Assembly: GCA_965197745.1 (NCBI GenBank)
Contig: CBDANS010000007.1
Location: 1,792,001 to 1,856,000, forward strand
Reading direction: 5' to 3'
DNA: 64,000 bases
Origin: Opitutales bacterium
GTDB lineage: Bacteria; Verrucomicrobiota; Verrucomicrobiia; Opitutales; PNEW01
Shown here: in pieces, positions 15,374 to 56,452 of the stretch
How the letters are laid out: every line of letters starts with the position of its first letter
Numbering within the stretch: the first letter of the stretch is position 1
The notes under the pieces: generated by a model
The model's input: the letters and a program-made list of their open reading frames with translations, nothing else
Told to the model about the DNA's origin: nothing
Databases searched by the model: none
Program-made: the position numbers and the translations under genes

Positions 15374-16768
15374 TTATATCAATGCCTGCGAAACCTCTTC
15401 CTCAAGAATTTCTGGATACAATAAATCAAGATCATTTAAGGTCATATCATTTTCAATTAAATCAGGATTTTCTCCTATGGCAATGAGTGCCGCTTTAGCA
15501 TTACCACCAATTATATCTTTAAGGGCGGAAAGGTACCCTGCCTGTTTTTGCTGCAGATACTGGGGGAGATGAGGTGAATAAAGATATCGATCTATCTTGC
15601 TTCCGTTGCGTCGCAATATTCTTTTTAAATCGGCGCTCTTCACTTTGCCTGGGTGTCCTGTAATTACTGCATTTCGTAGAGTATTTACGAGTTCGACAAA
15701 GTTACCGGGCCATTGATAAGTGAGAAGAAACCCCACTGCTCCGAAACTGAGGGTTTTCTTTTCTGGACGTTTCTCCTTTTCAGCATAAAACGCGAGATAC
15801 CGTGACGTGAACAACGCGAGGTCAGTAATTCTCTCTCTTAGTGGGGGAATATTTATAATTTCATTTTTATTGAGAAGCGCTGATAGAGCATCGGTTCTTT
15901 TATTTGCTAGCTTTATAAGTTTGGGAGCATTCAAATTTACTATAAATGTCAGATTGTCGCAGTCATCTGATAGCCCATCTGCAAGTAACTTGATTATCTT
16001 AATCGAGCCGCATAAATCATTTCGAAATACATTTTCCGAATCAATAATGGCAACTACATTGCTAAGTGCCGCATCTGAATTGATTGACTCCAGTAATTTT
16101 ATAGTGTCATGCGAAGGTAATGATGAAGTAGACAGATATAGGGATGGTTTTCCATCGAGAAACTTCGCGAACGACCAGCTCAAATTCTGACCCTGAAGGA
16201 GCATTCACATAGTGAACGTGTTTCTCATTGCTACTGTTCCATAGCATTTGAATAAATTCTCTGGATGAGGAATGAGCATCAGCGAGATAGCTGAGTTCTT
16301 GAGGATAAGTATTCTTTTTATTTTTGCTTTGTTCATTATTCCCTGAGCGCAGCATGCTTGTAACACCCTTATTTTCTTTTATTTGTTTTTTTTCGTCTAT
16401 TAAAGGGAAGGCGTACTTTCTGACATGATTGATAAAGTTTTGAGTATCGAAAGGTTTTTCCAAAACCACGGAAACCCCGATATTAGCTACTTTAACAAGT
16501 TCTGGAGTGTTCATGTGTCCAGAGATCATGATCACAGGGATAGATGGATCTATTTTGCGGGCGTGTTCTAAAAATTCGGCTCCTCCCATAACGGGCATAT
16601 TATAATCAGAGATAATGAGTGCATACCTTTTCTCTCTAAAGCTTCTAAAGCTTCCACCGGTTTAGTGATTGTATCCACGCAAAAGTGATGGGCGCACAAC
16701 AAATCGTTGAGCATCGCTGCGTAATTTTCCTCATCATCGAGAACTAATATATCACTGCTCAACATCAT
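15374..16768 (-). pseudogene. Response regulator (REC + degenerate sigma54-activator AAA), split by two frameshifts
   Basis: ORFs 16568-16768, 16107-16598 and 15374-16204 join into one protein. One extra A in the run near 16630 restores ...ALERKRYALIISDYNMPVMGG; the second shift is near 16150. C-terminal part has IPPLRER and YQWPGNFVEL. May be an assembly error. Confidence 0.7.
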
Positions 16769-43864: not shown

Positions 43865-45036
43865 TCAGGGCCCACAGGTGGCCTTAAGATAGACGGGGCC
43901 ACAATTAATGATCACGGGCTGACCACCAATTTCTATTTCGAAGAATACAACACCATTAAATTCCATACCTGCTTCAGTGGCTGGATTACATTGAGCGGCC
44001 ATCTGGAAAATAAATTGACTTCCAGGATTTAAAACTTGGGGAAGTTGAGTAAATATTCCCAATTGAAAATGGATACCTGGGTCAATATTTATCACGTTAA
44101 TGGCGGTAAGTTCTATGATGAAACTGCTCGTGTTCGTGAATGTTAATTCAGTCACCTCAAATCCCGTTGTCAGATTTCCATAATCAATAAACTCGGTACT
44201 AATTCCACAGTTAGCGGCCTTTTTACCCGCCTCTCCGGGAGGGCCCTGATCGCCCGTTGGACCAATTGGACCGGTAGGACCTGTTTGGTCCCCTGGGTCC
44301 AGTGATGCCTAATACCCTGTCCTCCTTGAGGGCCTGAGGGGCCTTGTAGACCTTCAGGTCCGGCGTCTCCGGTAACGCCAAGAGGTCCTTGAGGTCCAGG
44401 TAAACCTGTTGGTCCGGGAAAAAATCCAGGAGGACCCTGAATCCCTGTAGGACCGGTGGGACCTTGATTACCTGTGAGACCGCTCGGACCGGAGGGACCA
44501 CTGGCACCGGGCACTCCGGTAGGACCTGTCAGACCGGCTGGACCTGTAGGTCCTTCAGGTCCGGTCGGACCTGTGCCTCCCGATCCTCCACCACCAATGG
44601 ACAGATAAAAAATATCAAAGTAGGGATGGTTTCCCCGGTTATGATCATACTTATGCGAATTTTTTCTATTAACAGTGAGCAGGTAAGTTCCTGGAAAATC
44701 AATAATCACATCGGGCAATGCTGCCAGGAGTTCCTGGATAGGTTGATTTTTTTCTATCTCAGGGTCGGGGTCAAAAGCGAGAACATCAAGCACACAGATA
44801 CCCACCGTAGGAATGAAAAGAGTGACTCTGCCACTAAACTCATTGTCTCCAAAATGCACGCCTGATATGAGAACCGTTTTGTCATCCAAGTTGGGTTCGG
44901 CATCTAATATCCTGAGATGTTTATTCCCTTTGTCTTTTTTATCATCATTACCTCCCCCTTTTGCATGAGACAGCGATGGGGTGGATAGTAATAAAATTGC
45001 GGTTATTAAACTTAACAAGCGGTATTTAGATTTCAT
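43865..45036 (-). CDS. Secreted collagen-like protein D (N-domain + ~35 Gly-X-Y + Cys/Ig-like C-domain); frameshifted
   Basis: Signal peptide ending [19 protein letters not shown] domain, GPT/GPS repeats. About three small indels at ~44220-44310 separate it from ORF 43865-44155 (TFTNTS...CNP...FNGVVFFE...[10 protein letters not shown]). Confidence 0.72.
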
Positions 45037-45084
45037 AGGCGTGCTCATCATCTAGTAGTAATAGGTAAAACTTGTAGTTACGCT

Positions 45085-45112
45085 GTCGTCCGCCCCAAAA
45101 AGGGTGGACGAC
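45085..45112. other. Intergenic hairpin between collagen-like genes C and D
   Basis: gtcgtccgccc-loop-gggtggacgac; arms resemble the hairpin at 46337-46365; no clear U tract. Confidence 0.5.
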
Positions 45113-45136
45113 TAACGCTAATGAAAACTGAATGCA

Positions 45137-46103
45137 TCAATCATCACTGATGCAGATTGCAGTGAGAAATACAGGACCGCAATCAGCAGGACCAAAGTCA
45201 ACTTGGATAAAGACAAGCCCGTTAAATTGCAAACCGTCTTCTGTGAATGGATCACACAAAAAATCTATATCTATATTCAGTGTACCTCCTGCCAAGACCA
45301 AAAACAGGTGGAAACGGAAAGGAAGGCGGCGGTGGCGGTGGACTGCTTAAGGTATAATGGGGGCCCAGTATACCATCTGGACCAAAATTTAATATGGAAA
45401 TATCAGTAACCGTAAAGTCGGCCCCGCTGGTATTTGTTAAAATGATAGTTCCAGTGCCTCCAGCAGTTTCACCGTAATCGACTAACTGTGTATCGACGGT
45501 GCAACCGAATACGGCGTCAGCTCCGGTGGGACCAGTTGGACCGGTGGGACCTGATTCTCCGCCACCTTCACCGCCAGTACCAAAAGCTACATAAAAAATA
45601 TCGAATTTAGGCCGATTCCCGCGGTTATCATCCGTATCTTTCTTATCACTTTTGCCACCATTGTCTCCATCATCATCGTCATCACCATCACCAGAGCCCC
45701 GGTGATCAGATTTCTTTCCAATTACAGTGAGAAGGTATGTGCCCGGAAACTCCTCTATAAAATCAACAGGGATAGTCACAAGAAGCTCTTGTACCGGCTG
45801 ATTTTTTTCAATATCAGGATCGGGATCAAAGGCGATTATATCAAGTGGGCATACCCCTTGTGTGGGAATGTATAACTTTACCTTTCCCTTGAATTGATTG
45901 TTTTTTGAAAAATTAATTCCCGAGATGAGCAGCGTTCCGTCATCCAGATTAGGCTCAGCGCCTAATATTCGCAGGTGCTTTGCATCTTTCTTCTTGCTAT
46001 CTTTATCATCATCCTTCTTGCCGCCACCTTTCGCATTTATCAACAGTGGGTTGCACACAATTAATAACGCCAATAGAAAACCAGAGAGATAATTAATTTT
46101 CAT
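45137..46103 (-). CDS. Secreted protein C (N-domain + short collagen linker + Cys/Ig-like C-domain); one frameshift
   Basis: Signal peptide [26 protein letters not shown]. Removing one base from the A run at ~45300-45304 gives ...FLCDPF...FNGLVFIQ...CGPVFLTAIC, with a stop at 45137. Confidence 0.78.
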
Positions 46104-46329
46104 AAAACTCCTTCAGCATGTACATATAGTAGTATTATAGAATATGATACATGTGTATCATAAATGTCTGTTCTTGTAAATTATATACTAAAATGAAAAC
46201 TAATAAACTCGTCCTCGTTAAAATTGCGTCGCCAGGGACAGGGTGATTCATCTGAGCCAGTCACACCCTTTGCAAAAGGTGAAAAAACGGCTGCCCAGAA
46301 ATCGGGTTAATTGGCAATTGGATAGCCTC

Positions 46330-46365
46330 AAAAAAATCGTCGCCCGCTTTTAAGACGGACGACGA
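46330..46365 (-). terminator. Rho-independent terminator after collagen-like gene B
   Basis: Minus strand TCGTCGTCCG-loop-CGGGCGACGA followed by T7. Confidence 0.7.
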
Positions 46366-46388
46366 CAGGGTTAATATTAAATATTTAA

Positions 46389-47209
46389 TCAATCACCGGG
46401 GAACCCTCCTGGAGGTCCTGGAGGTCCTGTCGGACCCGTTGGTCCAGTCGCACCATCAGCACCTGTTGGTCCAGTGGGCCCTGTTGCACCATCAGCGCCA
46501 GTAGGTCCAGTCGCTCCAGTGAGCCCAGAGGAACCTGTTGCTCCAGTGGCCCCAGTAGGTCCTATAGATCCTGCAGATCCAGTCGCGCCGGTAGGTCCAG
46601 TCGCACCCGTTACCCCCGTCGGTCCGGTCGCACCATCAGCGCCAGTTGGTCCAGCAGGTCCCGTTGATCCAATGTTTGCGTAAATAAAATCAAATTTTGG
46701 CCGATTTCCGCGATTATCGTCATGCTTATCACCATCATCGTCATCGCCATTATCGTCATTATCGTCATCATCACCGCCACCAGATCCTCCTCCTTGACTT
46801 CCACTACGATTACTTACTAGTAGTATATAAGTACCGGGAAACGTTTCAAATAAATCAGCGGGGATTTCTGCCAGAATTTCCTGGATGGGCTGATCTTTAT
46901 CGATGTCTGGTTGGGGATCATAAGCGATAACATCAAGGACGCATATTCCCTGCGTAGGAACGAAAAGTTTTACTGTTCCATTAAATTCATCACCCCGAAA
47001 TTAATCCCGGAAATGAGTAGGGTTCCATCATCGAGGTTGGGTTCAGCAGCGAATATACGGACGAAGTGACTTCCATTATCATTATTACCACCGCCACCAT
47101 CATCATCGTCATCATCACTATTGTTCCCGCCACCTTTAGCATATAAATGCAATGGGTTGCTAAGAATTAATAGCGTAGCAAATAAACCCAACAGATATTT
47201 AATCTTCAT
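46389..47209 (-). CDS. Secreted collagen-like protein B (N-domain + 29 Gly-X-Y triplets, no C-domain); one frameshift
   Basis: Signal peptide LYA-KGGG and an Asp run. One extra G at ~46993-46996 continues [23 protein letters not shown]...FPGTY...NRGNRPKFD, then GPT/GAT/GAD repeats to GGFPGD*. Confidence 0.8.
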
Positions 47210-47616
47210 AATCTCCCCTTTGATTTTGCACAGTAGTAGTTAAGAAACCAGTATCATAATTTTGTTGGATATAAGGGCAATCAACAAATTAGACCAGACC
47301 TTAATAATAAGGAATTCTTATAAAATAATCCTCAAGAAATTAAGGCACTAAATTGTTAATCAAATAAGTGAGTTCATTTAACAAATTATCTAAATATACG
47401 CCTTAAATGTAAAAATCATAAGGGTAGAATAAAACAATGTGAGTCGGCTACAGAAATCCGATAGCGCAACCAATATGCTGTCTATAAATCTATAGCCTGA
47501 GGTGTGCAAGCAGGTCACAATTCCTAGTGTAATTTTATAAGTTACAACAGAAACGATTGCAATGCTCGATATCGACATGCTGCCCCCCCTGTGCCTATTT
47601 AAGATTCCCTTAAACT

Positions 47617-48610
47617 TTATGGAAATAAATCTATATCGGGCGGGGGTGGTAAATCTGGAATTGAAATACATGTTCCAGAAAGTGTTACCGGACCGCAGGG
47701 AGCGGGTGCACTGTCAATTTCCACAAATACGCTTCCTGAAATTGGACCTTCTGCTAAACAACTGATTTGAACAACCACAAGTAACGATTCTCCAGCTGGA
47801 ACCGTGGCGGGAAGTGGATTTAAGATTGTTACCCTGGAGTATCCGACGTGATGTCCGAGACAATAAAATCAGCTGAACCTGCATTTGTCAGGGTCACAAA
47901 TTGAGCTACCGGCAATCCAACAAGGACAGAACCAAAATTTATCTCTAAATTATCTATATCACATGAAATGTCAGGTTCCGCTGACACGCACACAGGTCCG
48001 CTCACAGACACATACCCGGGACTGGGTCGATCAGGTTTTCTAATATCCTGATTACCCGCTTTCGTGGCAGCCAGGACACAACCGGTATCAATTACAAATT
48101 CTGGCTCAAGTACTGACTCATCGAGCGTTAAAGAAAAAATCTGGCATTCATTGTCACCCAAATTGAGGTTGTCAAATTTCAGCCCGACTACCTGAGTGGT
48201 AGGATCCGGAAATACAAGTTCCCAGGATTCTGAACCATCCCCGCAATCTCACATCCGGCAACAAGGTCGGCAAGCGTATTGCCCTCGGATAGACAATCGA
48301 GGAACTGGCCCAATCTTATGTCCCAATGGCTTAAGTCTTTAACTTCCGGCCCGACACCTAACTTGCATACCCTGTAAATAAAGGTAGCGGCATCATTTTC
48401 ACGCGTGACATCCAAGAGTTCTATACTGAATTGTCCATTCTCGGCATTCGCTGGATTGTCGTCGCATGTGCTTAAATCCAGGATATTTTCATTAGCAGGT
48501 GGAGTATTCTTATCAGAGGGTCCATTTCCCTTGCCGGGTTTGGCACTGACGACATTCATCAGCATCGATAGAACTATCGAAGCAATAACAGTTGAAATGA
48601 CATTTTTCAT
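47617..48610 (-). CDS. Secreted protein A (DLSHW/DPTT domain + Cys/Ig-like ASH-type C-domain); two frameshifts
   Basis: Signal peptide VSA-KPGKG. Single-G insertions at ~48240 and ~47833 join the ORFs into ...DLSHW...PDPTTQVVGLKFD...ATKAG...INFGSVLVG...TLTNAGSADF...CGPVTLSGTC...DLFP*. Confidence 0.72.
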
Positions 48611-48999
48611 AACAGGTTTATCTTAAACAGGTGAAGAATTAATGAAGCTTAGATTCTTCTATTTAGTAATAGTGGTTTAGTTGTAGTAATTATCGAAATA
48701 TTCTTTTTAATTCAAAAATTACTATAAGCAATATACCCTATAAGTCAACGAGATATATATAATTCCCGGTAAAAAATAAGTAAAAAGCCCTATTTATTTT
48801 AATAATAATAAGAACCCCTTATCATTATTTATGACTTACCGGTACAGTAAATTGTTTCAGTTGACTGCAAAACGAGTGCCTGGGCTTAGCATTGAACCGG
48901 AAAATCATAGCAAATAATATAATGCTAATGACTATCTGTAAATCGCCTTTCTCCAGTTCTGATCCTTGAAGCAGGAGGAGAAAGGTGTCTTATCAGTGA

Positions 49000-49917
49000 T
49001 CACCCACCGAAATCAAATTCGAGTGGCTTCATCTCATAATACTGGTCCCACTTATCGAGGTACTCTGTCTCATATTGGATCGAGTTCACGTGTTCTATAG
49101 CTTTCTCCAAATAAGGATTTAAACCATCAGGATAAGGTTGGGCAAGAAATCGATACAGGCCGTGACAGTCATTTTCAAGTTTTGGGATGACAATCTTTTC
49201 CCAAAAGAAAGGGGTGCCTTTAAGAATATCCGCACTACTTTTAAAAATACGATCCTCCTCGGGAATATCTCGATAATCATCTGATTCCCCAAATTCACGA
49301 AAAAGTAAATTCAGCTTATTTTTATATTCGGGGTCACTAATCTGTCCCAGATAATCAGCGGTGCAAACAGCCTCCCCCATTATTCTCTCAACTTGATTAT
49401 TAAAGGGGACGGCATCGATGATGCTGCGCGGGCCGGTACAGCTTATGAGGTGTTGAACAACGAATATCTCAAAGCGATTCCAATCATTTTTGGTAAGATA
49501 TAATTCGGCAAGTTCACAGCTTCTCTGCTCGTGGACAAATGTATATTTAGCACCTGTTCCTTCGTTGTCTCCACCTTCTTTGAGGAAACCAATATCGTGG
49601 AGGATAATACCGTGAAGTCCGTTTTCAAAATCCCTTTCCGACAACATCGGTTCAATTTCATGAAGTTGTCGATTTGCCATGAGTCTTGTCCAACAGAGTG
49701 CGGCTTGTAAGGTGTGTTCCAAATTATGATAAGCGGCATCCATCTCCTGATATTCCCAGTAAGTGCCATTAAACATGCTATTAACGTCGGAAAAGAGTTG
49801 AGAAATCATTTCCGTATTCGCTTTGGGAAACACTTTTTTTTGTATCTCCTGAACCGCCTTTTCCACAACCAAGTAGTCTCTGGTGTCCACTTCATCCAGC
49901 GTGTAATTTAAACTCAT
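49000..49917 (-). CDS. HD-superfamily metal-dependent phosphohydrolase (PDEase-like)
   Basis: YHNLEHT, LHDIG, HEQRS, ADYLGQ. Confidence 0.82.
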   Translation of the reverse strand: MSLNYTLDEVDTRDYLVVEKAVQEIQKKVFPKANTEMISQLFSDVNSMFNGTYWEYQEMDAAYHNLEHTLQAALCWTRLMANRQLHEIEPMLSERDFENGLHGIILHDIGFLKEGGDNEGTGAKYTFVHEQRSCELAELYLTKNDWNRFEIFVVQHLISCTGPRSIIDAVPFNNQVERIMGEAVCTADYLGQISDPEYKNKLNLLFREFGESDDYRDIPEEDRIFKSSADILKGTPFFWEKIVIPKLENDCHGLYRFLAQPYPDGLNPYLEKAIEHVNSIQYETEYLDKWDQYYEMKPLEFDFGG

Positions 49918-50104
49918 GATAAATTCGTCCTATCCTGTATAAATTAGTAATTAAATAATATTCCTCTTAAAATAATCCGGATAATCGGATCTATATTATC
50001 GTAAATAGTTATTAATATAAATGTGAAACAATAGCAATTTTTTTTACATTTAACTTCAACCGCTTTGTACAATTGTTACCTAACGGTGATAATAAAGGGT
50101 AAAT

Positions 50105-51723
50105 CTATTCGTTTCTCTCGGGGAGAGGAACCATTAAGGGGAGTATCCATCGAGCATGTCTGAACAACGGGTAGGACACCTTTGTCAGATCCGACTGCGG
50201 GTCAATTAATGGTTGAAACTCCCGGCCATTGAGAGAAGCAATTACACGTGCTCTTATTTCAACCTCTTCATACCCTTCATTTTTCATCTTCTGCTCAAGG
50301 AATTGGACAAATTGAATAACTAATCCGGGTCGAGAGGTCATTTTTTCGGTCTGTTTCGGTGTCAAATAATCTTGCGGATCAACAATCCACTGTTCCTTTG
50401 TTGTCGCATCAGTAATGATGAAAAATCCGGCTGACTCTTTATCACGCAATTTCATATGCCATGAATAATTATGGCCTTCCTCGGTCCAATGAACATTGCC
50501 TGAGATGATAAAATGACGCAAGGGAACCAAGATCTGGAGAAGCACCCAAGCGCCAAGCAAGATATACACAACCTTGCTCTCTGGAAAAAAACCAGGCTCA
50601 GATTCACTGATCGACAGTTTTTTTTCTTCTTCGGAGAATGCACTTGCATTAGTGGATGTTGATATAGATTTATTTTCATTCACTGACCGAAATGGTTCGT
50701 CCACGTGAAACGCGGCAATGGCCAGGCCCAACCCACCTACTATAGCTCGGATCGGTGAAAAACTGGTGGGAAGGAATCCGCCAATGAAAAATCCAAAAAC
50801 AAAACCTCCCGTTATTTTACACATGGAGACAAGATCAGCTTTGATTAGACTGCTAACGGCACGACGAGGCCAATCTGTGTCGAAAAATACAGCAGTCGTA
50901 ACGATCATTGTCCAGGGAAAGATACCAATACTGAAAAGCCGTGCATTCATAAAATGGAACAAAAGGGTAATGGCATAACCCAATACACGGGTCCGTCGGT
51001 GAATGAGCAGGAAGACGACTGATAAATCAATAAAAACAAGGCACTGTAAGCCATGAACAATACGAAAACCTCATTGGTAAAGAACTGGCCGAGAAAAGGA
51101 AAATCGGTCCGTGCGGCCAACCAGGCTCTTAAGGGTTCACCATACAACCAGTCCGAATTTAGCTTGGCGACACCGCCAAAGAAATATGGAACACCAACCT
51201 GGAAACGGAGGAGCCAAATCGACCAGGCAGGAATAAATCTCATTCGATGATTAGATTTTCGCAAGACGTCGAGTGAAAAAGAACGATTCGCCGGAACAAA
51301 TATCATGAGGAAAGCGATAAGACAGACGAGATAGAGATGATTGAGATATATCGCTTTCTCCAGTAAAAATATATAAGTGATCATTAAGAAAAAAAGGATG
51401 GCACATATTCGGTAGAACAATCCCAGGATAAGACAGAGGGCTATAATGCCCATCGCTACGATATGAATTTTCATGCCAAGACCCGGCCAGGGCTGAATAA
51501 ATTCAAACGGCCAATATTTAAAATAAAATACAGGGTTTGAAAAATAACGCCCGGTCCAGTCGTGTGCGATGAAACGCCACGCTTCCCAGAGCATGATCGA
51601 GTAGAAGCTGATTCGAATAAAAACGAGGCCGGCAATATCGACAGGGCTGAGAATGAAAGCGAAAATACTATGGAGTGGGTCGTGCTTTCCCCTATCCCTT
51701 TGTTCTCTATGAGGAGTTGTCAT
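50105..51723 (-). CDS. HTTM-domain / vitamin K-dependent gamma-carboxylase-like membrane protein; one frameshift
   Basis: YLNHLYL, YFFGGVAKLNSDWL.GEP, FSIGIFPW, WTEEGHNYSWHMKLR, SLNGR...LIDP. The two ORFs join via an indel in the A run at ~51032-51036. Confidence 0.85.
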
Positions 51724-51883
51724 CTTTGAAAAATTCCCAGCGGAGACTGATAAAAGGCTGTAACTATGTCCTTAAAATCAATTTAGATTCATTATTTAAT
51801 CGTTATGAATAAATAGAATAACTATTTTATCGGGAATAGATATAACTCTTTTTAATTATTTCTAAAAAGTAATTATAAACCCG

Positions 51884-53929
51884 ATGGTGAATTCGAAATC
51901 CAAACTCGAGAATGAATGCCCGGAGAAGGGAACGCGTACGCATTCAAACTGGTTAAAGGTAGGGGTTCACCTCTCAGTGATTTTTATCCTGTCGACATTG
52001 ATATTCGGGAATACCCTGAACAATGTTCTTCACCTGGATTCAATTTACCGTGTAGGGAACAACCCCGAGCTTGATAAGGTCTGGCCTCCCTGGAGGCATT
52101 TTACCGATCCGCGCACAAGCACATCGATACCACAAATTACGGCATTCCGTCCATTGCTTCCGCTGACCCTATCAATAAATAATGCCTTCAGTGATTTTAT
52201 AGGATGTGAAAGGTTAACAGGATTTCATCTCGGAAATATCGCGATCCACATTGGGACCTCTTTTATTCTCTATTTTTTCTTTATAGAATTACTTCAGTAT
52301 TGGGCGAAACTCGCAAAGCCCAAAAGGGATCTATGCAATATAGCGTTTGCCTCAACCTTAATTTTTGCAGTTCATCCTATATCCGGTGTTCCCGTAAACT
52401 ACATAGCGGCGCGTGATCTACTTTTGATGATGTTTTTCCTTATGGGATCTCTTTTCACATATGTGAGAATGAGACGTCTCGGTGAAACATTTACCGGATG
52501 GGCCTTTTCCCTGGGCCTACTCTCTCTATCGATGCTTTCGAAGCAGAATAGTGTGGTCGCGCCTGTATTGATATTTACCTTCGAGCTTCTTTTTGCTCGT
52601 CACTCCTATCGATCATGGAAAACCTGGTTATACCCACTCGCCTTCGGAAGTGTCATCGCCATTTTTTTTGTATGGACAGAAATCATACTCGATTTTTCCG
52701 ATCTGGGTCAGCTCCACACCGAAGCGATGACTCCATGGATTTATGCATGCACTATGGGACGAGTCCATCTCTTATACTATATACGAAATTTTATTTGGCC
52801 CTTTTCCATGCGGCCTCTCCCTTACATCGAAGCAGCGGAAGGAATATTCGATCCCGGAGTTATCATCGGCATTATCTTTATCCTCATAATTCTCGTAATC
52901 GCTTTCGTTTTCTGGCGCCGTGCGCCATTACTGAGCTGGTGCATCCTCTCATACTGGGGACTATTCGCTCCAACTTCATCCATCCGCCCATTTCGCTATC
53001 TTGTCGTTGACTATCGGCAGTACCCTTCGCTCGCATTTTTAAGCCTGGGACTAATACTTGGCCTTACTCTGTTGTTGTCTAATATTCCCAGGCAACGCCT
53101 GATCTGCTCTATAATAGTTGCCGTGGTAATTTGTTATTTTGGGATCTCTACATTTTTTATGAATAGAATCTGGCAAACTGAAGAAAAATTCTGGGGACAA
53201 AGTGTGCGTTATGGGGCAACAGCTCTTGCTCACATGAATTACGCTATGAGCATCCAGTATAAAAATCCACCATTAGCGGAAAAACATTTTCATGACACCC
53301 TAAAACTATCTCCAGGACATACCTATACGCATATAAATCTCGGATTGTTCTACATTCGATCGGGTAAGGTCGAAGAAGGTCTCAGTTACGTAAAAAAAGC
53401 TACTCAACTTGCTCCTAGCTGGGCCATAAGCCACTATTGGCTATCCAAAGCTTATCGTCAGGTAGGAAAATTGGCTGAAGCACAGGTAGAGAGCCATCGT
53501 GCCGCGGACCTGGATCCACGCAACGCTAAATACCAATACCAGGCTGCCTGGGATTTACAGGAACAAGGTGATGTCCTAAGATCACTCCCCTACTTGGAAC
53601 GCGTAGCCCGGATCAGTCCGGGCTATAAAATAGCTAATTTTCTTGAAGGATTTGCTCTCCAGAAAGCGGGGCGCTGGAAAGAGGCTGAATACAAGTACCG
53701 CCATTTTCTCCAGCAAAAACCGGATCATGCTCAGACTCACTTTAACCTGGCTTATGGATTAATGAACCATGGCGAACATACTGATGCTATAGATTTCTTT
53801 ATGGAGGCGCTTCGTCTGAATCCGGATATGAGTTCAACCCACCATTGGCTCTCAATATGCTATGACGAACTTGGGAACTCAGAAAAGGCAGCTTATTATA
53901 GGGCACAATATGAAGCGACTAAACATTGA
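51884..53929 (+). CDS. TMTC-like multi-pass membrane protein (GT-C fold) with C-terminal TPR repeats
   Basis: FRPL, FHLGNIAIH, IFAVHP, LSK, NRIWQTEEKFW; about 11 TM segments, then TPRs. Confidence 0.8.
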   Translation: MVNSKSKLENECPEKGTRTHSNWLKVGVHLSVIFILSTLIFGNTLNNVLHLDSIYRVGNNPELDKVWPPWRHFTDPRTSTSIPQITAFRPLLPLTLSINNAFSDFIGCERLTGFHLGNIAIHIGTSFILYFFFIELLQYWAKLAKPKRDLCNIAFASTLIFAVHPISGVPVNYIAARDLLLMMFFLMGSLFTYVRMRRLGETFTGWAFSLGLLSLSMLSKQNSVVAPVLIFTFELLFARHSYRSWKTWLYPLAFGSVIAIFFVWTEIILDFSDLGQLHTEAMTPWIYACTMGRVHLLYYIRNFIWPFSMRPLPYIEAAEGIFDPGVIIGIIFILIILVIAFVFWRRAPLLSWCILSYWGLFAPTSSIRPFRYLVVDYRQYPSLAFLSLGLILGLTLLLSNIPRQRLICSIIVAVVICYFGISTFFMNRIWQTEEKFWGQSVRYGATALAHMNYAMSIQYKNPPLAEKHFHDTLKLSPGHTYTHINLGLFYIRSGKVEEGLSYVKKATQLAPSWAISHYWLSKAYRQVGKLAEAQVESHRAADLDPRNAKYQYQAAWDLQEQGDVLRSLPYLERVARISPGYKIANFLEGFALQKAGRWKEAEYKYRHFLQQKPDHAQTHFNLAYGLMNHGEHTDAIDFFMEALRLNPDMSSTHHWLSICYDELGNSEKAAYYRAQYEATKH

Positions 53930-53967: not shown

Positions 53968-54044
<77 letters not shown>

Positions 54045-54942: not shown

Positions 54943-55815
54943 ATGAATATCACCATAAACGATCTACTTGACGCAGGCGTCCACTTCGGACACCAGTTGC
55001 GTCGCTTCAATCCCAAGGTGAAAAAATTTGTTTTCGACAACCGCCATGGAATCTCCGTCATCGACCTGGAACAGACTTTTTCCCTCCTCGAAGATGCGAC
55101 CAAATATATTGAGGAACTTGTAGCATCGGGTAAAAATATACTTTTTGTCGGAACCAAGCGACAGGCTCAGGAGATAATCCGCGAAGCTGCCACGTCCTGT
55201 CAGATGCCCTTTTGTGCTAATCGATGGATGGGAGGAACCCTCACCAATTTTGCCACTATAAAATCCAGCCTGGATAAATATAAGAACTATCTCGCCATGG
55301 ATGCCGACGGTTCACTTGACGAGCTGCACAACAAAGAGGCAGCTGCCATCCGCCGTGAGATGAACCGGATGCAACGCAACTTTGAAGGCCTCATTGAAAT
55401 GGATGGACTGCCCTCGGCCCTCTTCGTGATCGACATCAATCATGAAGAAATCGCGGTAGCCGAAGCCAAAAGAGTAAATACTCCGGTGATCGCGCTCGTT
55501 GACACTAACAGCAACCCTAACCTCGTCGATAAGCCAATTCCCGGTAATGATGACTCGATTAAATCCATACGCGTAATAGTTGAGACGGTCGTAGAAGCAG
55601 TGCAAAATGGGCTCTCTCAAAGGGAAGCTCAATCCTCTACGGCAATAGGGATAACCCCTATTGTGCGTGAATTTACAAAAGAAGAACAGCTCCCCATTAC
55701 CGCTCCAACCATTCCTACGGGTGAAGAAGAAGCGACAAGCGACATTCCTACGTCGTACTCTACAGACTCTGATGATGAAACATCAGGGGGCACACAAGGC
55801 CCGTTGTCTAAATAG
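54943..55815 (+). CDS. rpsB: 30S ribosomal protein S2
   Basis: LLDAGVHFGH, FVGTKRQA, RWMGGTLTNF, VDTN, PGNDD. Confidence 0.98.
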   Translation: MNITINDLLDAGVHFGHQLRRFNPKVKKFVFDNRHGISVIDLEQTFSLLEDATKYIEELVASGKNILFVGTKRQAQEIIREAATSCQMPFCANRWMGGTLTNFATIKSSLDKYKNYLAMDADGSLDELHNKEAAAIRREMNRMQRNFEGLIEMDGLPSALFVIDINHEEIAVAEAKRVNTPVIALVDTNSNPNLVDKPIPGNDDSIKSIRVIVETVVEAVQNGLSQREAQSSTAIGITPIVREFTKEEQLPITAPTIPTGEEEATSDIPTSYSTDSDDETSGGTQGPLSK

Positions 55816-55858
55816 ATATATTTTCTCTCCAAGTTGGAATAATTACTCAGGTAATAAT

Positions 55859-56452
55859 ATGACTGTTGAAATTACAGCTAAAATGGTCAGCTCTTTACGA
55901 TCAGCAACAGGCGCCGGTCTCATGGATTGCAAGAAAGCATTGACCGAGGCTAAGGGTGATTCTGAACAGGCTATCCTGATTCTGCGCAAGAAGGGCATGG
56001 CGGCAGCGGAAAAAAAACTCGACCGCAGCGCCAGTGAAGGACTGATTGAGCAATACATTCACCTGGGAGGCAAGGTCGGTGTTCTCTTGGAAGTCAATTG
56101 TGAGACTGACTTTGTAGCAAAAACGGATGACTTCAAAAAACTTGTTAAAGACATTTGTCTCCACATTGCAGCGGCAAATCCGATTTGCATATCCAGCGAT
56201 GAGGTGCCAAAAGAATTAATTGAAAAAGAGCGTGATATCGCAGCGTCCCAAATTCAAAATAAACCACCTGATATTATTCAAAAAATAATTGAAGGAAAAT
56301 TGGTAAAATATTTCCAGGAAGTCTGCCTGATTGAGCAACCCTTTGTTAAAAATCCAGATCAAACGATAAAGGATCTGATTACAGAAAAGATCGCCAAGCT
56401 TGGTGAAAACATCGTAATTCGTCGTTTTACACGCTACCAGATGGGCGATTAA
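55859..56452 (+). CDS. tsf: Elongation factor Ts (short form)
   Basis: ATG at 55859; LRSATGAGLMDCKKAL, EVNCETDFVA, LGENIVIRRF. Confidence 0.97.
   Translation: MTVEITAKMVSSLRSATGAGLMDCKKALTEAKGDSEQAILILRKKGMAAAEKKLDRSASEGLIEQYIHLGGKVGVLLEVNCETDFVAKTDDFKKLVKDICLHIAAANPICISSDEVPKELIEKERDIAASQIQNKPPDIIQKIIEGKLVKYFQEVCLIEQPFVKNPDQTIKDLITEKIAKLGENIVIRRFTRYQMGD

Follow-up and report, generated by a model that had tools for sequence, protein, structure and literature searches.

The locus considered here occupies positions 43,865 to 53,929 of a 64,000-nucleotide stretch (the window) of contig CBDANS010000007.1 from an Opitutales bacterium (assembly GCA_965197745.1), and it raises the question of whether bacterial membrane enzymes modify the collagen-like proteins encoded beside them. 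It carries four genes for putative secreted proteins, named A to D, a gene encoding a protein with an HD motif, a homolog of the vitamin K-dependent gamma-carboxylase (VKGC) made of an HTTM and a lumenal domain, and a divergent gene for a membrane glycosyltransferase, predicted to have the GT-C fold, joined to tetratricopeptide repeats (TPR). A first-pass annotation of the window had proposed that both membrane enzymes act on the collagen-like proteins. The observations behind this proposal are confirmed in part and its interpretation is supported in part: gene neighbourhoods elsewhere agree with such a role for the GT-C/TPR protein but not for the HTTM protein, and the proposed substrates are pseudogenes here. 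The reading favoured in this work, with slightly better than an even chance of being right, is that of an accessory locus for surface proteins, passed on within a single bacterial family and decaying in this species, the GT-C/TPR protein being the most likely modifier. Three genomes are compared throughout: that of the window (G000, 4.45 Mb), one from a different genus of the same family and assembled as a single contig (G001), and one from the genus of G001, 94% complete (G002).

The candidate glycosyltransferase and its neighbours

The GT-C/TPR gene (51884-53929, plus strand) is intact and encodes a protein of 681 amino acids (aa), with a putative membrane domain at about residues 20-445 and TPRs at about 445-681. 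Pfam detects the TPRs only; residues 1-459 match no Pfam family and DUF1736 is not found at E ≤ 5. Foldseek and a sequence profile, used with the whole AlphaFold2 model (28 homologs; pLDDT 91, pTM 0.83), likewise returned nothing but TPR matches, and a wide VIA-align search alone recognised the membrane domain. This domain aligns with those of AglB (3waj; Z 20.5, 325 residues, root-mean-square deviation (rmsd) 4.2), Pmt1-Pmt2 (6p2r_B; Z 19.5, 352 residues), ArnT (5f15; Z 18.8, 337 residues) and PglB (5ogl; Z 17.5). The interval Z 17.5-20.5, over 318-352 residues, also covers ALG12, STT3 and Pmt4, and the GT-C matches exceed the Z of about 13 that is common for helical models according to the tool; the TPR matches lie at Z 19-23. 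On this model, the protein is predicted to combine a GT-C fold with a TPR domain, as the first-pass annotation had supposed when it called it TMTC-like. By its sequence, it appears TMTC-like in type but, according to Pfam, not a member of the TMTC family. Like TMTC1-4 and TMEM260, animal O-mannosyltransferases whose targets are cadherin and IPT domains, it would associate a GT-C membrane domain with lumenal or periplasmic TPRs. Among its relatives, D52 is conserved in 27/27, and R89-P90, K220 and Y377-R378 in 28/28. This Asp of loop 1, the YRP, the Lys and the YRxY resemble by eye, without alignment to TMTC, the motifs reported for TMTC proteins, DD in the first external loop, YRP, Lys and RxxY (PMC7801869).

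The evidence that carries the link to collagen-like proteins comes from other genomes. GT-C/TPR homologs with 33-53% identity were collected from 79 metagenome loci (725 kb in total). Ten of these loci harbour, within about 2 kb of the homolog, a long collagen-like open reading frame (ORF) of 18-101 Gly-X-Y triplets, mostly Thr-rich and, for the most part, convergent and directly downstream. As five of the ten correspond to one lineage (85-95% nucleotide identity), only six metagenome lineages are represented. Where at least 1.5 kb of downstream flank is available, a collagen-like ORF is found within 3 kb at 6 of 35 loci; two loci with shorter flanks, L122 and L133, also have one directly downstream, and the upstream side shows one at 2 of the 50 loci with at least 1.5 kb of flank. 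At L122, which holds the closest homolog (51%), a GT2 glycosyltransferase gene (7.9e-32), a methyltransferase-like ORF, a GtrA-family gene (1.1e-8) and the GT-C/TPR gene lie on one strand, and the collagen-like gene converges on them 50 bases away. In an independent collection, a close GT-C/TPR homolog occurs in 3 of 401 Planctomycetota genomes, and in one of these three a collagen-like ORF of 77 triplets follows the homolog at a distance of about 1.3 kb. The pairing is thus found in a total of about seven lineages. The literature searches made for this work gave no paper linking bacterial GT-C/TPR proteins of this subfamily to collagen-like proteins, nor any described substrate. The link is a new, testable lead.

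If this lead is right, the GT-C/TPR protein would most likely take part in a periplasmic O-glycosylation route of the Gtr/Pgf type. A GT2 enzyme would charge polyprenyl phosphate with a sugar in the cytoplasm, the lipid-linked sugar would be flipped, the GT-C domain would move the sugar in the periplasm onto Thr or Ser residues of the exported stalk, and the TPR domain would bind the substrate. In Gtr/Pgf systems, a GT2 makes the lipid-linked sugar and a membrane transferase passes it to the exported protein; the transferases PgfM1 and PgtC2 presumably also have the GT-C fold. The GT2 and the small membrane partner of this three-part system are both absent from the window and present in G001 and at L122. 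The GT2s of G001 and L122 match PgfS weakly and PpgS/AglJ-type enzymes more strongly, and the GtrA-family gene of L122 is a further likeness. The differences are that the putative transferase considered here bears a TPR domain and that its candidate substrates are collagen triple helices rather than disordered regions. In streptococci, Ser/Thr-rich regions are the targets of GtrB with PgtC2 and of PgfS-PgfM1-PgfE-PgfM2, in exported proteins that include Cnm and WapA (bioRxiv 10.1101/2024.05.05.592596, PMC5856776). Among described bacterial systems, these come nearest to the route proposed here.

The strongest competitor to this reading arises from the comparison with G001, where the locus comprises, in order, two DHDPS-like genes, Tsf, S2 and tRNA-Met, then DUF2304 and GT2, then HTTM, HD, A, a 41-codon remnant, B, C and D; an epimerase, a PPTase and an oxidoreductase gene come next in both genomes. 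The sole difference in content between the two genomes is the segment between tRNA-Met and HTTM, which encodes GT-C/TPR in G000 and GT2 plus DUF2304 in G001. The tRNA-Met gene (anticodon CAT; 53968-54044, minus strand), at which the block ends as annotated at first pass, occupies the same place in G001 (L005 13424-13500); we take it to be an initiator on account of A11:U24 and its likeness to the initiator of E. coli. Since the differing segment directly adjoins this conserved tRNA-Met, a swap at a tRNA-adjacent site between the two genera is suggested. The GT2 of G001 is PpgS-like (3.2e-68; 229.6 bits versus a cut-off of 370) and paired with DUF2304 (9.9e-17), a pair that presumably makes a polyprenyl-phospho-sugar in mycobacteria. 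Judging from these matches, both genes probably supply the sugar donor in a pathway like the one outlined above.

It could then be argued that the genes of the locus are unrelated neighbours, without functional link, and that the slot between tRNA-Met and HTTM merely received different glycosylation genes in two genera. The conservation of tRNA-Met beside the swapped segment in both genera, the absence of GT-C/TPR from the site in G001 and the fact that the relatives nearest to it belong to other taxa and share just 51-57% identity all fit this explanation. So does the arrangement in the window, where GT-C/TPR is transcribed divergently from the array at a distance of about 4.7 kb, with HTTM, HD and A in between, unlike the convergent adjacency seen elsewhere. 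However, both kinds of genes are rare. The close GT-C/TPR homologs are confined to three of the 401 Planctomycetota genomes, and collagen-like genes number about one per Mb (four in the 4.45 Mb of G000, two of them in the locus itself; one spurious run in the 1.26 Mb of HTTM loci described below). Therefore, their lying within 5 kb of each other by chance would be an event of about 1%, by our estimate. Furthermore, the pairing recurs in the lineages listed above, and the genes standing in for GT-C/TPR in G001 are from a pathway of the same sort. An absence of any functional link thus appears unlikely, while being the alternative that retains most weight.

Besides the orientation and distance in the window and the empty site in G001, several results weigh against GT-C/TPR as the modifier in an accessory locus. 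No collagen-like gene was found at 69 of the 79 GT-C/TPR loci, though only 26 of the 79 reach 10 kb, and relatives of the N-domain of C or D are found at none of the 79 (0/79). As the N-domain of the window's proteins is thus absent from the collagen-like neighbours, the feature common to all of them is the stalk. The control sets were drawn from different collections than the test set. Position 53, next to the conserved Asp, is Asp in 18/28 relatives and Ser in 9/28, and the window's protein has Ser, which, like the lack of a DUF1736 match, separates it from TMTC1-4 and TMEM260. Neither swapped gene has a close counterpart in the other genome: the best match to GT-C/TPR in G001 (23% identity) and the best match to the GT2 of G001 in G000 (30%) both lie elsewhere in the genome. 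Finally, HTTM, HD and A to D are found together in G000 and G001 and are jointly lost in G002, as a functional unit would also be.

Genes A to D and the HD gene

Genes B (47209-46389), C (46103-45137) and D (45051-43865), all on the minus strand and all pseudogenes in the window, would encode secreted collagen-like proteins. All start with a signal-peptide-like sequence, recognised by inspection from hydrophobic N-termini ending in A-K-G-G, and continue with an IPT-like N-domain of about 110 residues, a linker and a collagen part. Over these three regions, B, C and D are paralogous, and their N-domains share 49-66% identity when the orthologs of G001 are counted. In B, an Asp-rich stretch precedes the N-domain. 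The first-pass annotation had described four tandem paralogs with Thr-rich Gly-X-Y stalks, Asp-rich linkers and Ig-like domains. This description holds for most of the array, with exceptions for each feature. The tandem family has three members, A sharing only the C-terminal Ig-like domain. Thr-rich stalks are found in B (29 triplets) and D (17+10 or more), C having only about three GPT triplets (versus 22 in its G001 ortholog) and A none. The linkers of B and C are very Asp-rich and that of D is short. Ig-like domains are present in A, C and D but not in B, which stops directly after the collagen part, as does its database homolog P0124 (224 aa); a strong terminator-like hairpin lies at 46366-46336, by the end of B. 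Pfam Collagen (PF01391) matches D with 41.7 bits (cut-off 27.2; E 9.6e-11) and the intact C ortholog of G001 (363 aa) with 43 bits. The NCBIfam models SclB, Lcl and SclA match weakly, on the collagen part only and far under their cut-offs (46.9 bits versus 325).

The N-domain matches no Pfam family, IPT/TIG included. In the predicted model of the D protein of G001, in which the N- and C-domains are confident and the stalk is unmodelled, the N-domain (residues 48-160; pLDDT mostly 80-96) resembles IPT and E-set domains: 3hrp (Z 11.2), the Met IPT 5lsp (Z 10.0), the plexin IPT 5l7n (Z 9.6) and the IPT/TIG of EBF3 (Z 9.2), middling scores for a common fold. The domain common to cMET, RON and plexins is, we assume, the IPT domain, so that the IPT-like N-domain would be a likeness to the TMEM260 system. 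TMEM260 glycosylates the domain shared by these receptors (PMC10214176). Cys-containing beta domains form the C-termini of C and D. The one modelled in the D protein of G001 (residues 235-349), an Ig domain of ASH/PapD-like type, is closest to the SPD-2/ASH domain of CEP192 (9fh8; Z 12.0, rmsd 2.1, 98 aligned residues), followed by pilus chaperones (Z 9-11) and the PapD-like domain of HYDIN (2e6j, Z 9.6). The choice-of-anchor D models stay under their cut-offs (NF012200, 30.3 and 34.1 bits versus 45; PF22544, 22 versus 25.5).

The N-domain family (alignment A2) is small: a full HMMER search among 1.84 billion proteins gave 71 representatives at E ≤ 1e-3, of which 19 remain at E ≤ 1e-10, and a word-based search only two proteins. 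Pfam Collagen follows the N-domain at E ≤ 0.001 in 26 of the 32 members scanned, and the C-termini differ (Kelch, phage tail collar, S74 chaperone or none). No N-domain match was found in metagenome contigs, in viral contigs, in 400 other genomes of the phylum of the window (0/400) or in 401 Planctomycetota genomes (0/401, a set without positive control).

The three collagen-like proteins, whose stalks should trimerise, and the non-collagen protein A may have made up fibres of the cell surface or of a matrix. The collagen-like ones resemble BclA, Scl1/Scl2 and Lcl in their putative signal peptide, their globular ends and their Thr-rich Gly-X-Y stalk. SgtA is reportedly a soluble transferase and not a GT-C enzyme. 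The proteins of the locus differ from these known ones in having no LPXTG or other anchor and in their end domains, IPT-like at the N-terminus and ASH-like at the C-terminus. BclA-type proteins are glycoproteins (PMC7157674).

Other collagen-like sequences were met outside the window. P0122 (308 aa), a paralog of the family with 77% identity, has a DUF7467 inserted in its acidic linker, and its collagen part appears frameshifted. Two identical runs of 11 triplets (GPTGATGLIGPTGPQG...) are present on different contigs of G000, at C4:32003-32101 and C5:223259-223357, and may be part of an element that is duplicated or mobile.

Gene A (48610-47617, minus strand) is also a pseudogene. It has a signal-peptide-like start, no collagen part and a C-terminal domain of choice-of-anchor-D or HYDIN-VesB-like Ig type, its N-terminal half differing from those of B, C and D. 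NF012200 matches it at 4.7e-7, under cut-off. Its ortholog in G001 is intact (324 aa) and also matches PF22544 (1.9e-4) and NF012200 (3.1e-8) under cut-off; it shares 43% identity with the C-domain of the B protein of G001. An Atlas search with A gave a weak ASH/HYDIN lead only (score 0.76). In G000, a frame of 398 codons at C6:1231530-1232327 is 43-46% identical to the A ortholog, N-terminal half included. The adjacent HD-type gene (49917-49000, minus strand), already recognised at first pass, is intact. Its product (305 aa) matches NF045583 (2.1e-14, 53 bits versus a cut-off of 400) and no Pfam family at E ≤ 0.01. As several paralogs are found in each genome (five matches in G000, five in G001 and four in G002), the HD protein is not a dedicated partner.

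Frame breaks and history of the block

Five of the seven genes are pseudogenes, owing to seven frame breaks that were placed by comparison with intact orthologs: two in A (near 48240 and 47830), one in B (near 46993), one in C (near 45300, between 45342 and 45289), two in D (near 44310 and 44285) and one in HTTM (near 51031-51034). The frameshifts suspected at first pass are thereby located, and contigs of a second study contain them too. Among contigs from three studies (runs X1, X3, X4 and X6), those of X1, which may be the source run, match the stretch exactly, a 16,184-base contig of X3, from the second study, covers all 9,991 bases with two substitutions and no gap, and those of X4 agree; the HTTM frame change is identical in X1, X3 and X4. 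The locus is among the lowest 46 of the 1068 8-kb intervals of the contig for long-ORF cover. The remaining window is densely coding and the contig has normal long-ORF cover elsewhere. The degradation is therefore local and not genome-wide.

Run X6, from the third study, represents a strain diverged by about 0.5%, with 43 substitutions (40 listed and three more not shown) and nine indels over the locus, four of which fall at break points of the window; the depth of its contigs is only 4-8, so that single differences could be errors. When its differences are applied by script, A becomes one frame of 331 codons, B and D remain split, HTTM acquires a second break and GT-C/TPR falls into two frames of 228 and 430 codons. 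The protein collection contains a truncated GT-C/TPR protein (P0196; 465 aa) that is 100% identical. An X6 contig also contains a join from 44563 to 45847, which could be a fusion of C and D or two paralogs collapsed through shared k-mers; by script, the joined form yielded no ORF reaching 90 aa, and nothing is concluded from it.

These breaks might be taken for assembly artefacts or for reversible phase-variation switches, the locus being functional in the population. The break of B falls within four consecutive G and that of C close to five consecutive T, the related strain has the open state at four sites, and contigs are blind to minority alleles. However, the state is identical in contigs of two studies over the whole 10 kb, the first breaks of A and of D lie outside homopolymers, seven breaks affect five genes while the other strain has different ones (in HTTM, in GT-C/TPR and as a 4-base insertion in B), and long-ORF cover is normal in the remaining window and contig. 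The frame breaks are real, and since the strains differ in their lesions, several of which lie outside homopolymers, decay fits better than artefact or phase variation, which are very improbable. With all four secreted-protein genes and HTTM frameshifted, the system is therefore not working in the strain of the window.

Damage to the block is also found in the relatives. In G001, HTTM (537 aa) and A are intact and C and D (349 aa) are retained, but B, which carries GPE repeats there, is split inside its collagen repeats. The 41-codon remnant between A and B of G001 (L005 19270-19395) bears the signal peptide of another paralog, so that at least one more copy has disappeared from the array. In G002, searches for PF22777, A and the N-domain were negative. 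The syntenic site (L203, G002:C1:1939900-1944000) has kept residues 1-67 of HTTM and a 20-residue remnant of DUF2304, and the block from HTTM to D is replaced by transposase genes of insertion sequence type (rve/rve_3 integrase core and HTH_21; L203 523-2700), one of them intact and the other split. The block goes back to the ancestor of the family, can be dispensed with and has been damaged more than once.

Two other ORF overlaps were noticed in the window. That of S2 and Tsf (54943-56452) was considered as a frameshift and rejected, being merely due to an upstream TTG in the Tsf frame. At 15374-16598, two minus-strand ORFs (276 and 163 aa) have about 100 bases in common, which may reflect a frame change or an upstream start.

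The carboxylase homolog and the meaning of the locus

The HTTM gene (51723-50105, minus strand), a pseudogene, matches PF05090 (1.4e-58, 198.9 bits) and PF22777 (1.7e-46, 158.4 bits), each with a cut-off of 27.7, in keeping with its first annotation as an HTTM/vitamin K-dependent carboxylase homolog. The profile of its family matches human GGCX chains across both domains, HTTM and lumenal (E 5e-69), and its stretch GGIAKLNSDW aligns with AGVKKLDADW of the human enzyme, which we take to be the site of the catalytic Lys. By these likenesses, it is a true vitamin K carboxylase homolog. It differs from human GGCX in that the gene is broken here and that neither a propeptide-bearing substrate nor a recurrent neighbour was found at 80 loci encoding HTTM/VKGC homologs. 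The family comprises at least 3002 proteins at E ≤ 1e-10 (8000 scored), with 45-60% identity across Chloroflexota, Actinomycetota, Planctomycetota and others. PF22777 is found in 2 of 41 related genomes, G000 included, and the genome of G000 encodes no other HTTM.

The 80 loci, taken from named genomes of many phyla (1.26 Mb in all), were searched for neighbours within 10 kb (tblastn, E ≤ 1e-3). Relatives of HD, A, C, D or the GT-C domain are found at none of them (0/80). One locus of the 80 has a run of at least eight Gly-X-Y triplets (GEMGKMGEMGKQ...), which looks spurious, and no family of neighbours recurs at more than 6/80 loci. The commonest neighbours, named by eye (loci L015-L094), encode an imelysin-like lipoprotein (6/80) and a DUF1111-like di-haem protein (5/80). 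Reciprocally, HTTM is absent from the GT-C/TPR loci (0/79). Outside the synteny of one family, a link between HTTM and collagen-like proteins thus has no support, and the carboxylase half of the modification proposed at first pass is not supported. In the favoured reading, HTTM and HD stand beside the array through common descent rather than as partners dedicated to it.

The same counts bear on the full model put forward initially, in which the HTTM/VKGC protein carboxylates acidic residues (in the Asp/Glu linkers or the GPE repeats), GT-C/TPR glycosylates, and both serve one extracellular-matrix system. In its favour are the synteny of HTTM, HD and A to D in two genera and their joint loss in G002, the breakage of HTTM alongside its proposed substrates in G000, and the homology with GGCX, including the aligned KL..DW stretch. 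In addition, an aspartyl residue is carboxylated by MloH, a bacterial relative that works in an antibiotic pathway (bioRxiv 10.64898/2026.08.19.745780). Roles independent of proteins are therefore known. Against the model stand the two empty neighbourhood surveys, the absence of a recurrent neighbour in so large a family, and the gaps of 195 and 516 nucleotides that separate HTTM, HD and A in G001. The synteny within the family says little about function, since it takes in the housekeeping genes on either side as well. The full model is accordingly highly improbable. Its most specific form, one unit in which the VKGC homolog modifies Asp/Glu linkers or GPE repeats and a PpgS/GtrB-fed, TMTC-like GT-C/TPR protein O-glycosylates the Thr-rich stalks, is the least probable of all; its carboxylation half has no other basis than conserved gene order and shared loss and decay inside a single family, and its glycosylation half, taken by itself, is a tentative possibility, somewhat short of an even chance. 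If the one-unit form were true, it would be a prokaryotic counterpart to the maturation of animal matrix proteins.

The bacterial VKGC homologs form a large and well-conserved family, for which the negative neighbourhood result is useful: as they have no fixed gene neighbourhood, local synteny is unfit for naming their substrates. Under the favoured reading, the locus is an accessory surface-protein block caught in the course of decay, with sets of lesions that differ between strains and a sister species that lost the block through insertion sequences. The recurrent pairing with Thr-rich collagen-like genes provides the GT-C/TPR protein with a concrete acceptor, open to expression and testing, and suggests that the glycosylation of collagen-like stalks could proceed through a periplasmic, lipid-linked route, besides the cytoplasmic enzymes known from spore proteins.

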